A stretch of DNA of 64,000 nt from Eledone cirrhosa (Eukaryota). Position numbers and translations under genes: made by a program. The stretch spans positions 141,360,001-141,424,000 of the forward strand of contig OZ024741.1 of NCBI GenBank assembly GCA_964016885.1, in the 5' to 3' direction. Below are positions 9,472-64,000 of this stretch, one piece after another; position 1 is the stretch's first letter, and each line of letters starts with the position of its first letter. A model generated the notes under the pieces. It was not told the DNA's origin and ran no database searches. It saw nothing but the letters and a program-made list of their open reading frames with translations.

Positions 9472-9556
9472 ATATACATACCTACACATATATATGCTGT
9501 CTTCAGAAACAATCATTATTTCTGAAGACAGCATATATATGTGTAGGTATGTATAT
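9472..9556. repeat. Perfect 38-bp inverted repeat with 9-nt spacer (fold-back 5' end of HHR element)
   Basis: 9472-9509 is the reverse complement of 9519-9556. Confidence 0.92.
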
Positions 9557-9650
9557 TCCCTCTGATAGTTTGTAAAACTTTTACATAGATCCATATGATA
9601 TACATACCACCACACACATATATATCCTAGAAACGATCGTAAAATGATGA
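9513..9650 (+). ncRNA. Hammerhead ribozyme with ~100-nt stem II domain
   Basis: 9-bp stem I UCAUUAUUU/AAAUGAUGA, CUGAAGA (9522-9528), long stem II (AUAUAUAUGUGU..GGUAUGUAUA / UAUACAUACC..ACACAUAUAUAU, base partly mismatched), GAAAC-GAUC-GUA. Confidence 0.72.
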
Positions 9651-9929
9651 ATTTTTTTATTATAAGGAACTATTTCTTTGTTTTTATTCATTATTTTTAT
9701 TAATTTATCTTGACTGTTTTCCTGTGTTTTTCATCGAAAAATGTTGAATACATCTTCTCTTTTCATGATATTTGGATTACATTGAGTTCTTCATACGGAT
9801 TGGACACTAGCGTATATTTTGGTAGATTTATCTACATATATATATATATATATATATATATATATATATATATATATATATATATATATATATATATATA
9901 TATGTACATATATATATATATGCCACCTT

Positions 9930-10330
9930 GGTGGCAACCCCACCAAGGTTTTCTTGGTGAGGAGGGTGGCTTTGGACATCCTGCAGAACTAAAAACAAAA
10001 CCTGTCAAAGGGCAAAGCAGCTCTTAAGAGTCAATGGCCATCCAAAATCACCGGGAGAGATGACCCCTTAACCTTTGTCAAGGCAGAATTCTAGGAGAAG
10101 GAAATCTCTGATATAACACCTGCAACTCTGATGGTATCCAATTATGTCGACTTGTTCTTTTTGGTAAATATCATCTTGGTTAAGAGAGTGGGGCTGGCTT
10201 TTTGCAGTGCTTTGCTCACTATAAAAGCTTCACGGCACAGGCATTGCTTTATATCTGGAGATGTCTCTGCACTTTTCGTCACATGGTACCATGGGCCCAG
10301 CATTATGTGTCAATAATTGTCACAAGTGTA
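9930..10330 (+). mobile_element. Interspersed repeat, probable RTE-like LINE 5' region; near-identical copy at 40116-40730, diverged copy at 29060-29191 (-)
   Basis: Direct alignment by eye; the 29 kb copy is fused to an RTE-type C-terminal coding remnant. Confidence 0.65.
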
Positions 10331-60225: not shown

Positions 60226-60604
60226 TATATATATATATATATATATATATACAATGTATATATATATATATGAGCTAAAAGTAGTTTTATGTTATATATA
60301 AACCAGAGGTAGTTATACACATTAAATATAGCCTAACATTTGCTTTGAGAATAGTTTTATATAAATTACATATACGATATCATTTCAACTCTAGAGGCAT
60401 TTTCGAATTTCAGATAAAGGCTTCTTAACTTTTATACAATATTTGTTCTCAACACAAAACCTCTTATTTCATTGAATGTGGCTTCTTATTTGTGACTCGC
60501 TTTTATATATATATATATATATATATATATATATATATATATATATATATATATATATATATATATATATATATATATATATATATATTATATATATATA
60601 TATA

Positions 60605-63336
60605 GCGGCGATGAATTAGTTTTGCGAGGATTTTTATATGAAATCGTGTGTCGAAACAAATATTGTTATACTTGGGGAGGTTCATATTTGTGTAATATTG
60701 CCAGAATTAATAACAGAACACACTCACTGTTTGGTTGGTTTTCGCTTCTCGCTTCTGTGTCTTTTATATCGGTAATCTAACTTACTCGGTCCTCAATGTT
60801 GCCATTGACTGACCGACGGTCAAAAATAATACAGATACAATATAGACACAAACACATATATATAGTTTATAAATCTTTCGTTGCGCATCTGCAACATCGT
60901 CAGTGGTGTTATATCTTCCTCCTGTTGTACTGTATGTCTACGCTATTTTTATTCAGTCTGTCTATATATTTATTTATTTATTTGCTTGTTTGTTTATTTT
61001 ATTTTGTCTTCTTTGCGCATGCGTTTGCGTGTGTGTATAGTGTTTTGTTGACTAGTGTGTGTTTATGTGCTTGTTGTTATTGTGCTTGTGTATGTATTTA
61101 TTTATTTATTTATTTTATTTTATTTACTTATTTATACTTCTCTTAGGTCAGTGTTGTTTGTTTGGGTGTTGTTGTTATTCCATTCATTCTTTCTGTTTAG
61201 CTTTGGTCTTCTAATTTCTATTTCACAGGCCTCTCTGATTTGCCTATCTGCTGGGTCATTTCTATGTTTAGATATTATTCTAATTTCTATGTTGTCTATA
61301 TTACCGTCATGTTGTTGTCTAGCATGTTCGTATAGTACTGGCCCGTTTTTTCGTCCTTTTAGTTCCCCCCAGTGTTGGTCTATCCTTTCACCTATGCAAC
61401 GAGCTGTCTCACCTATGTATGTTGTTGTCATGTTTCTGCAAGTACCCTCTGTAGATCTTATGCTATAGACTACGTTTCTAGTTTTACAGTTTATCCGGGG
61501 GTTCACCTTACATATGATACATTTCCTATTAGTACAGTGGGTTTTCTTAAAAGGGTAGGTTTTGCTGATCAGGGATTTTATGGTTGTTCCTGGCTTTTCT
61601 ACCACCTCTATTTTTAAGTGGGTCTTTCTCAGGGCCTTTCTACACTGGTTAGCTAATTTCCCTCCAGGGGTGGCGTCCACAAACATGTCACTGTGGTATC
61701 TTTGGTTGTCGTACCATGAGGTGGCTTTCCCTATCTTATGTCTAGCCCTATCTAAGCTATTCCATGATTTGCTTCTGTATAATGGGCAAATTCCTTTCAT
61801 GTCCAGTTCTATGAGGGTCTTATACTTTTCCATGGCTCCTTCGTATACTCTGACTCTGTCTCTTTGGTTGTAGCCAGAGAACTGCATGCGGTTGATGAAG
61901 TGTTGGATGTGTCTTTCCATTTCTGTTGGGTCGCACATGCGGGACACATTCTTCATCACTCGTACCAAATCTGCGATCAGAATATTAAACTTAGCACTAC
62001 TGGACATTGCTGAGTTTTTGAGTATCAGGTATTTGGAGGCCATGGGTTTAGCATAGTGTGAGTGGAGAATTTGGGCTCTCTCGTCTATAGTGTTAATCCA
62101 GAGTTCTGTGTCTAATACAGGTAGTCTATTGTTAGGGTGTTTGGAAGGGAAGTCGATAGTTACAGTTATACTCTGGTGTATGGAATTAGCTATTTGCTGG
62201 ATGCTTTCCATCGTGCTACGTTCTAAATCAAACTTGTTAGTGCTCTCTAGTGGGGGTGTTCTTATAACTATATTGATATCGTCTACATAACGATAGTACA
62301 TGATGAGGTCTATGGAGCTTTCATTAAGGAGATCTTTAAGTCTCCTTTCCCACCATACCATGAGAAGGTTGGCAACATCACCAGCTATGCTGACGCCGAT
62401 GACTGTTCCCTCATTTTGGGTGTAGATTTTCTCGTTGAACTTAAATATGTGGCCCTTTAGGGTAGTTTTGATACTAGCCCCTATTGCATGTGCGACCATT
62501 TTTCTTACCTGATCATTGTTTTGGGGGGTCCGTATAGCTTTGGTCCACCCAATCCACCTTCCCATGGGAGTCTTTTTTGCCATTGAGGTTATGGTGGAGG
62601 GTCTACCTCTTATAGGTCTACTAGGGCAGAAACATCTAAGGTCATGGCTGTCTAGGTAGACAGTGTCGTAGGTAAGTCTAAGTAGGAGGCCCGGTTCGTC
62701 TGTGTCGACGTCGCAGAACTCCACCTCACTCTCAATGATCATCTCCACACATCTTTTCACAGCAAAATCAATGTTAATGGATGGGTACAGTGACACCACA
62801 TCCATGCTGCCTATTATGCAGTTGGATAGGCTCCTGTTTTTGTTGCACTCACTGATTCTGCTGAGGAGGTCCTCTGTACTGTCACATACATCTGGGGACA
62901 TCTTGATTATGGGGCGTATAACCATTGAGAGGAAGTAGGAGATCCTGTAGTTGCTAGCTATATTAGCTCCGCATACGGGTCTTGTTGGTGGTCCTGTTGT
63001 CGGGTCATCGACTGTCTTGTGGTCTTTGCGGAGCCCATACAAGGGTGGTATGCCATTGTTAGACGCCTGGAAGTTGTTGGCAGTGCGTCTGCTTGGCTTT
63101 AGGATGTCAGTCCACATCATCATGTGAGCGTTGAGGATTTTTTCTCTCCCATCGTGTTTTTGTTGTGCAATTTCGCTCGTCTTGGTGATGTGGGGTTGCA
63201 TAGCCTCGATGTAGTTCGGCATGCTATCTATTGACATCCTACCAGACTTATCCGTGGGTAGACACACTACCTCACCATCCCTTGTGCGCTGCTTGGGGCT
63301 AACCAAGCCTTCTACAGGTTTCCTCCCAAGTTGTTG
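60605..63336 (-). mobile_element. PLE (Naiad-like), slightly 5'-truncated, left arm of a fold-back
   Basis: Long ORF plus ~530-nt 3' UTR ending in (TA)n; related to but distinct from the 18-23 kb family. Confidence 0.92.
61132..63306 (-). CDS. PLE reverse transcriptase + C-terminal GIY-YIG endonuclease (724 aa uninterrupted; frame open to ~63336, true start missing)
   Basis: PTDKSG, LYGLRKDHK, PTRPVC, GSMDVVSLYPSI, GTVIGVSIAG, YRYVDD, LPVLD, CxxxxCxxC linker, VVY..YIGETAR..H..H..EA..LNRK. Confidence 0.92.
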   Translation of the reverse strand: MVSPKQRTRDGEVVCLPTDKSGRMSIDSMPNYIEAMQPHITKTSEIAQQKHDGREKILNAHMMMWTDILKPSRRTANNFQASNNGIPPLYGLRKDHKTVDDPTTGPPTRPVCGANIASNYRISYFLSMVIRPIIKMSPDVCDSTEDLLSRISECNKNRSLSNCIIGSMDVVSLYPSINIDFAVKRCVEMIIESEVEFCDVDTDEPGLLLRLTYDTVYLDSHDLRCFCPSRPIRGRPSTITSMAKKTPMGRWIGWTKAIRTPQNNDQVRKMVAHAIGASIKTTLKGHIFKFNEKIYTQNEGTVIGVSIAGDVANLLMVWWERRLKDLLNESSIDLIMYYRYVDDINIVIRTPPLESTNKFDLERSTMESIQQIANSIHQSITVTIDFPSKHPNNRLPVLDTELWINTIDERAQILHSHYAKPMASKYLILKNSAMSSSAKFNILIADLVRVMKNVSRMCDPTEMERHIQHFINRMQFSGYNQRDRVRVYEGAMEKYKTLIELDMKGICPLYRSKSWNSLDRARHKIGKATSWYDNQRYHSDMFVDATPGGKLANQCRKALRKTHLKIEVVEKPGTTIKSLISKTYPFKKTHCTNRKCIICKVNPRINCKTRNVVYSIRSTEGTCRNMTTTYIGETARCIGERIDQHWGELKGRKNGPVLYEHARQQHDGNIDNIEIRIISKHRNDPADRQIREACEIEIRRPKLNRKNEWNNNNTQTNNTDLREV

Positions 63337-64000
63337 GTAGAAAAGCTAGGAACCGCCATAAAATCCCTGATCAGCAAAACCTACCCTTTTAAGAAAACCC
63401 ACTGTACTAATAAGAAATGTATCATATGTAAGGTGAACCCCCGGATAAACTGTAAAACTAGAAACGTAGTCTATAGCATAAGATCTACAGAGGGTACTTG
63501 CAGAAACATGACAACAATATACATAGGTGAGACAGCTCGTAGCATAGGTGAAAGGATAGACCAACACTGGGGGGAACTAAAAGGACGAAAAAACGGGTCA
63601 GTACTATACGAACATGCTAGACAACAACATGACGGTAATATAGACAACATAGAAATTAGAATAATATCTAAACATAGAAATGACCCAGCAGATAGGCAAA
63701 TCAGAGAGGCCAGTGAAATAGAAATTAGAAGACCAAAGCTAAACAGAAAGAATGAATGGAATAACAACAACACCCAAACAAACAACACTGACCTAGGAGA
63801 AGTATAAATAAGTAAATAAAATAAAATAAATAAATAAATAAATACATACACAAGCACAATAACAACACGCACATAAACACACACTAGTCAACAAAACACT
63901 ATACACACACGCAAACGCATGCGCAAAGAAGACAAAATAAAATAAACAAACAAGCAAATAAATAAATAAATATATAGACAGACTGAATAAAAATAGCGTA
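63335..64000 (+). mobile_element. Inverted duplicate of the same PLE's 3' part (GIY-YIG ORF 63331-63807); runs off window
   Basis: Near-identical reverse complement of 60939-61604. Confidence 0.92.

Follow-up and report, generated by a model that had tools for sequence, protein, structure and literature searches.

Mirror-image insertions of Penelope-like elements (PLEs) that carry a tail on one arm occur in (TA)n tracts of the Eledone cirrhosa genome (3.0 Gb; assembly GCA_964016885.1), and they likely arise when both target strands are cut and reverse transcription is primed from each end, at start sites that differ between the two. The starting material was a window of 64,000 nucleotides (contig OZ024741.1, positions 141,360,001 to 141,424,000), for which an earlier note had claimed eight inverted repeats; self-comparison of the window and pairwise alignment of the arms recovered all eight at or near their reported positions, and all eight are PLE families or their short non-coding relatives (Table 1). 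In the copies of these families sampled from the genome, the head-to-head form is present at about half of the loci, there is one tail per pair, the two arms share their source, and the tail is independent of arm length and of the orientation of the centre. The papers cited below were available in part, and statements about them refer to those parts.

Frequency and orientation of head-to-head pairs

For family A (element 8), family B (element 4) and the family of element 2, copies were sampled through exact matches to a 3'-end motif, which number 11,408, 23,128 and 7,963 genome-wide, respectively; the first 100 listed places per family, all on chromosome C1, were taken. All 71 clusters of family A, the first 60 of the 71 clusters of family B and, for tail scoring, 20 of the first 22 clusters of the element 2 family were fetched (loci carry the prefix L). 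Among the first 100 matches, adjacent pairs no more than 9 kb apart were in -/+ versus +/- orientation in ratios of 21:3, 26:1 and 34:1, or 81:5 over the three families, and the chance of any neighbour within 9 kb is approximately 1.3% for family A. A same-family inverted arm lies at the 5' junction in 38 of the 71 family A loci, while four others have a tail stub, two a family B arm and one an L1-type inversion; in family B, 34 of the 60 loci hold 35 head-to-head pairs. Such pairs are beyond chance and occur at about half of the loci, which agrees with the earlier suggestion that the fold-back form is a default product.

Most pairs overlap over tens to thousands of bp, with non-duplicating inversion confined to a minority (L092 and the tail-only arms described below), and 89 of 95 anchored family A 3' ends lead into TA. 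Raw reduced-representation Illumina reads of two runs contain opposite-strand joints at matching family A positions, and one such joint of the element 7 family is present in three runs, all three from one study; head versus tail orientation is not given by the read comparison. Many pairs of the element 2 family on C1 are 240-330 bp apart and near-perfect palindromes, suggesting a short fixed-centre sub-lineage. In locus L090 (6194-7286), at least four small head-to-head units, identical to one another, are arrayed in tandem with TA between them.

One tail per pair

Of 136 scorable pairs drawn from five families, 132 have a tail on one arm and none on the other, with tails of 45-130 nt: 36/37 in family A (L052 was not scorable), 33/35 in family B, 12/12 in the element 2 family, 30/30 in the element 1 family and 21/22 in the element 7 family. 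The element 1 count covers the first 30 of 128 matches, 12 of them lacking a match to the untailed end motif itself, and the element 7 count covers the 22 of 26 matches that are not truncated. For family A alone, the binomial probability against independent ends is 5.5e-10. Similarity-ranked samples kept outside this count agree (5/5 pairs of the element 3 family, 16/19 copies of the element 6 family and three long family A pairs). At L078 and L110 (C1:36.13-36.15 Mb), the same junction is found twice, 9.5 kb apart within a local duplication, and of the two right arms only one has a tail.

Source of the arms, centres and junctions

The two arms of a pair usually share their source. In family A, 15 of the 20 pairs with at least 200 bp of overlap have the partner arm as strictly nearest copy (three ties, two not nearest), as do 17 of all 34 pairs compared, and the arms of L077 differ by a single mismatch in 2961 bp; in family B, the partner is strictly nearest in 9 of the 14 pairs passing the filter. 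The two independent RNA copies of the earlier note are not supported as the rule, since arms are usually each other's nearest copy. In the fixed-centre palindrome families of elements 1 and 7 (arms of about 200 and 140 nt, respectively), variants common to both arms also exceed the cross-locus expectation (99 versus 23 and 30 versus 4.5). There the tail lies right or left of the non-palindromic 1-2-nt centre in ratios of 18:12 (element 1) and 15:8 (element 7), as read on 30 and 26 loci, and both tail sides occur inside the same sequence classes. Copying of a ready-made unit would fix the side.

Both arms end at the same base in 2 of 36 family A pairs (permutation P 0.006) and 2 of 30 family B pairs (P 0.025), with perfect equal-end palindromes at L086, L103, L299 and L300. 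Junctions show 0-5-nt overlaps or short fillers, some of them templated from the element; most lack TA, which is found in a few pairs only (L049, L340). These junction data are descriptive, the seed-based overlap statistics having been discarded (9 of 39 without a seed, three spurious long overlaps). Fillers at L059, L084, L101, L052 and L058 consist of short element pieces or repeated words, consistent with template jumps before joining.

Families A and B, approximately 70% alike, are joined head-to-head at L080 (3388-3391) and L083 (5530-5537) with no TA at the junction, and L083 follows the one-tail rule. These are the only two cross-family joins in 131 loci, with none in the 60 family B loci. 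Two-RNA events look rare; the two loci suggest that they happen occasionally, but sequential insertion could also account for both. That hybrids should form with the sister family B alone is a weakened argument, as B is twice as abundant as A and no hybrid was found among the family B loci.

Proposed mechanism and its alternatives

In the mechanism that we consider likely, the enzyme of the element would cut both target strands, and the two cut 3' ends would prime reverse transcription at two start sites, one each. The two cDNAs would then extend with strand displacement, each to a length of its own, along a single RNA or along sibling RNAs of one source locus, and their 3' ends would join through the short overlaps or fillers. 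One start site per target end, the use of mostly one RNA, strand displacement and joining are the steps that we infer. The (TA)n tract is likely a helper and not the cause: both of its strands would present an identical AT/TA 3' end to the AT-like bases of the two start sites. Double priming from both target ends with head-to-head joining, as the earlier note had proposed, is supported in this changed form with two start sites. In vitro, another PLE cleaves and extends both strands, and two start sites bound its tail (PMC11167929); the dimer in that study is an AlphaFold prediction. A stricter version, put forward here only tentatively, is an obligatory asymmetric double target-primed reverse transcription (TPRT), in which one ribonucleoprotein would assign the tail start to one target strand and the start of the pseudo-long terminal repeat (pLTR) to the other on one RNA, so that every insertion would be two-armed and "single" copies would have a second arm near zero.

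Several observations weigh against the two-start mechanism. About half of the loci have no visible second arm, three pairs have two tails (L078, L297, L346), L217 has a partial tail only, and within the window the untailed element 3 and element 6 break the one-tail rule. The A/B joins at L080 and L083 need two RNAs or sequential insertion, and gene conversion or inversion of the centre after insertion could yield both the similarity of the arms and the centre flips. The biochemical support comes from another PLE and not from these families, and the available part of PMC11167929 reports no start-site difference between the strands, so strict asymmetry is not predicted by it. The read support concerns family joints, the window's own junctions lying outside the coverage of the read sets, and the samples are first matches on one chromosome that depend on the exact 3'-end motif.

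The main rival, which we regard as unlikely, is that self-priming or fold-back, on antisense RNA for instance, as has been suggested for Penelopes of rotifers, makes an extrachromosomal hairpin from which the endonuclease trims one tail at integration. It explains the same-template arms and the perfect palindromes, and also the one-tail rule if the trimmed side is picked at random; self-priming was proposed in PMC3846280 and a tail left by endonuclease-mediated resolution in PMC8557442. The hairpin would, however, make cross-family joins impossible and require exactly one random trimming event per insertion, and in vitro it is the target strands themselves that are extended from two start sites bounding the tail (PMC11167929).

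The earlier note had instead made the self-complementarity of (TA)n the cause, so that, for any retroelement, both ends of a break in the target could prime on two independent RNAs, which now appears quite improbable. The family A 3' ends running into TA and the AT/TA-like bases at the ends of the start sites fit it, as do the two A/B hybrids. An RTE-type long interspersed nuclear element (LINE; apurinic/apyrimidinic endonuclease and reverse transcriptase (RT) motifs seen by eye; 9,121 matches) served as a control and gave one -/+ and one +/- pair in 98 clusters, so that by the same count duplicating pairs number 1/98 versus 21/71 in family A (Fisher P = 2.5e-8). Among its first 20 fetched copies, 11 have pure (TA)n at the 3' end, five are non-duplicating inversions and one is a duplicating pair (L174), which speaks for self-complementarity and is 1 of the 11 clearly TA-flanked copies; the sample is small and the TA may partly be the tail of the LINE itself. 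Because this often TA-flanked LINE gives one pair in 98 clusters, (TA)n clearly does not suffice. Nor is it necessary, because the same structure is published for PLEs that have 8-10-bp target duplications at sites other than microsatellites (PMC3846280); necessity was judged from these published PLEs, as in this genome no PLE family was found whose target is non-palindromic. Independent, identical priming at both ends would moreover yield two tails or none half of the time, versus the 4/136 observed, and the shared source of the arms likewise speaks against it. The RTE-type copy in the window shows a classic non-duplicating twin-priming inversion between TA tracts, and 5 of the 20 fetched copies are alike.

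Even less probable is that a single target-primed cDNA snaps back, a variant that the earlier note had also offered, with later inversion and conversion between the arms scrambling the tail side. Same-template arms and the four equal-end palindromes would be expected, and inversion of the centre is a known process in palindromes. Target-primed snap-back, however, leaves the tail only on the longer arm, so tails on the shorter arm argue against it: by positions entered by hand from BLAST, three of them estimated, the tailed arm is longer, shorter or equal in 13, 21 and 2 family A pairs and 12, 16 and 2 family B pairs (25, 37 and 4 of 66 together), and near-identical young pairs such as L059, L077 and L084 are among those with the tail on the shorter arm. 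Tail-only arms adjoining untailed arms (L063, L068) and tail stubs of 12-22 nt abutting long untailed arms (L055, L062, L065, L076, L303, L317) share almost no sequence with the partner arm, which is too little homology for a recombination swap, and the tail-only arms already contradict snap-back. Least probable of all are independent sequential insertions into one TA tract, or assembly and long-read fold-back artefacts, for although TA tracts gather nested insertions, a few junctions hold TA, the window junctions lack read coverage and sequential insertion is the best alternative for the two A/B hybrids (given the abundance of family B end matches), the orientation bias, the junctions mostly free of TA, arms that diverge by up to several per cent and are unlike in their tails, and the opposite-strand joints in independent short-read runs all oppose them.

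Identity of the families

For families A and B, one open reading frame (ORF) combines RT with a C-terminal GIY-YIG endonuclease, as in endonuclease-containing (EN+) PLEs, and the YIGET motif follows the RT in both, with frames broken in the copies read. The GIY-YIG match of element 4 is above the cut-off, while the RT match of element 8 (RVT_1, E=4.6e-5) is below it. The natural tandem unit of family A measures 4147 bp, occurring as such in L052 and L109 with partial tandems in L040 and L071 (pLTR organisation), and the 724-aa protein of the earlier note is real only as a 5'-truncated part of the longer ORF in this unit. The tail of family A consists of the first 43-58 nt of the next unit, with 3' ends at unit position 4147 or 4190/4205, and family B ends at 2860 or 2919; the tail is thus optional in both. 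A CX4CxxC linker and a CCHH motif, found by eye in the family A translation and compared with the definitions in the available part of PMC8557442, match the CX2-5CxxC linker and CCHH motif of the Neptune/Nematis type, to which this family may belong. In the N-terminal part of its ORF there is an Asn-rich in-frame insert (L052, unit approximately 710-1200) that resembles the N-rich inserts reported in rotifer Penelopes.

Elements 2 and 3 are further PLE families. Elements 1, 5 and 6 belong to short non-coding families with PLE-style tail behaviour and are putative non-autonomous PLE derivatives, judged by tail, TA target and motif; no autonomous partner was found for these three, whereas element 7 is the 3' end of the PLE at window positions 1-2906. 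A tRNA-like head occurs in one copy of the element 5 family (L158:1665-1737, called tRNA-Ser by ARAGORN) together with the PLE-style tail, and this family is possibly a PLE-mobilised short interspersed nuclear element. A DNA transposon with terminal inverted repeats, or a miniature inverted-repeat transposable element (MITE), was rejected for elements 1, 3, 5 and 7, whose ends are asymmetric in their tails; the MITE reading is further ruled out by variable arm lengths in elements 3 and 5 and by flips of the tail side in elements 1 and 7.

A motif scan, run without a shuffle control, gave hammerhead-like motifs at window positions 9522, 98, 3845 and 26762, and under its rules no hammerhead motif was found in families A and B. 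An Rfam scan gave no hammerhead among the 150 of 255 matches listed, these being sub-threshold and driven by TA repeats. The canonical-looking motif at 26762 (minus strand) lies at a LINE fragment's 5' junction and belongs to yet another repeat family.

Features of the window

The earlier description of each element as a body plus an inverted copy of its own downstream part between TA-rich tracts fits elements 2, 4, 5 and 8 fully, with one end tailed, and also element 3, in which neither arm is tailed. It fails for elements 1 and 7, in which the short arm is a centre-proximal piece of the palindrome cut by TA and not a copy of the 3' end, and the TA-rich tracts fail for element 6, whose left arm, a piece of the tail, lies next to (TG)n. 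In pairwise alignment, the arms of elements 1 to 8 are 97.6%, 99.6%, 93.0%, 97.9%, 97.3%, 89.4%, 100% and 98.3% identical, respectively. A Tc1/mariner-type element (59330-60225; HTH_48, terminal inverted repeats of about 140 bp) is inserted in the TA tract beside element 7, and further short inverted repeats were noted at 23504-23545/24141-24182, 16864/25716 and 8845-8977.

Table 1. Inverted elements and related features, in positions of the window
Feature	Positions	Strand	Match
5'-truncated PLE; 3' untranslated region (UTR) holds element 7 centre and U3-A8 hammerhead-like motif (position 98)	1..2906	-	
Element 1 left arm, TA-shortened; centre-proximal part of fixed-centre palindrome family	9472..9513	-	
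Element 1 right arm, tail of about 130 nt; type I hammerhead-like motif from 9522, 9-bp stem I	9515..9835	+	motif scan
Element 2 short arm with 90-nt tail (11386-11474)	11386..11923	-	
Element 2 long arm, untailed; 5'-truncated PLE, GIY-YIG remnant (CxCX5C linker)	11922..13666	+	GIY-YIG E=0.007, below cut-off
Ninth head-to-head unit, short, like the element 6 family; absent from the earlier note	13713..13896		
Element 3 long arm, untailed; PLE-family 3' UTR (L117 has a GIY-YIG-like ORF upstream)	13921..15661	-	
Element 3 short arm, untailed; junction overlap about 4 nt	15658..15852	+	
Element 4 (family B) long arm, RT and GIY-YIG remnants, tail 18143-18199	18143..21059	-	GIY-YIG 23.6 bits, above cut-off
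Element 4 short arm, untailed, terminates in (TA)n	21060..23031	+	
Control: RTE-type LINE in (TA)n with non-duplicating L1-type inversion	36547..37071		
Element 5 arm with 60-nt tail; short non-coding family	38740..38909	-	
Element 5 untailed arm; GTAC at junction	38910..39020	+	
Element 6 left arm, tail fragment with (TG)n flank, atypical of its family	58252..58298	-	
Element 6 right arm, tailed	58301..58424	+	
Element 7 left arm, 65-nt tail; 3' end of PLE family at 1-2906	58993..59200	-	
Element 7 right arm, TA-shortened	59203..59222	+	
Element 8 (family A) long arm, 737-aa open frame, RT and C-terminal GIY-YIG-type motifs, tail 60605-60659	60605..63340	-	
Element 8 short arm, untailed; runs past the window to 64277 (944 bp), then TA	63335..64000	+	

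Relation to known systems and significance

The architecture is not new but textbook PLE structure, its form and (TA)n bias being published (PMC8557442, PMC3846280, PMC2377424). An inverted 5'-truncated copy is described as frequent, with an often one-sided tail, a (TA)n bias and an open mechanism (PMC8557442), and head-to-head is the most frequent form both in PMC3846280, where self-priming was proposed, and in D. virilis (PMC2377424). EN+ PLEs with inverted pLTRs (D. virilis Penelope, A. vaga Pen2a and Pen3a, and the Naiad, Neptune and Hydra clades; PMC8557442, PMC3846280, PMC2377424, PMC4209133) share with the present families the RT and GIY-YIG domains, partial tandems, the inverted 5'-truncated copy at the 5' end, the frequent one-end tail, the (TA)n bias, the Asn-rich insert and, as candidates here, hammerhead motifs. 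They show no difference in kind in the parts available, with tails of 30-40 nt there versus 45-130 nt here; no quantification of the one-tail rule, arm provenance or centre flips was found in those parts. Poseidon PAc in vitro is alike in the cleavage and extension of both strands, an AT-rich preference, two tail-bounding start sites and a predicted dimer, and different in that its available text gave no strand difference in start site and no link to inverted insertions (PMC11167929).

For L1, twin priming and two-RNA inverted insertions likewise have a second target end that primes a second cDNA, a head-to-head join by microhomology and occasional two-RNA inserts, but annealing of the second primer is at internal sites that vary, and the duplication does not exceed about 10 bp (PMC11702581, PMC10191854). 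In the PLEs, by contrast, the second start has a fixed place close to the 3' end and duplications reach kilobases, and the RTE control follows the L1 pattern (5/20). Non-LTR retrozymes (bioRxiv 10.64898/2026.07.22.740005) are short hammerhead-bearing non-autonomous PLE derivatives, which the families of elements 1 and 7 with their hammerhead-like motifs resemble, but are described as tandem arrays, whereas these two families occur dispersed, as fixed-centre palindromes that have one tail. A search mostly outside subscription papers found none in which double priming is stated for the inverted repeats of PLEs, and older Penelope papers may contain a similar model. The architecture is known; the literature searched gave neither the quantified one-tail rule nor the tests against snap-back and against sufficiency of (TA)n.

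The origin of tandem and inverted PLE structures and of one-sided tails was named as an open question in PMC8557442. The families described here offer young copies by the thousand, and their sharp rule of a single tail per pair, borne by either arm, is directly testable in the existing in vitro system. Through such insertions this genome is seeded with very many long inverted repeats, a point of importance for assembly, for repeat annotation (they can pass for MITEs) and for double-stranded RNA. If obligatory asymmetric double TPRT were true, one rule would account for both the tail and the inverted pLTR.

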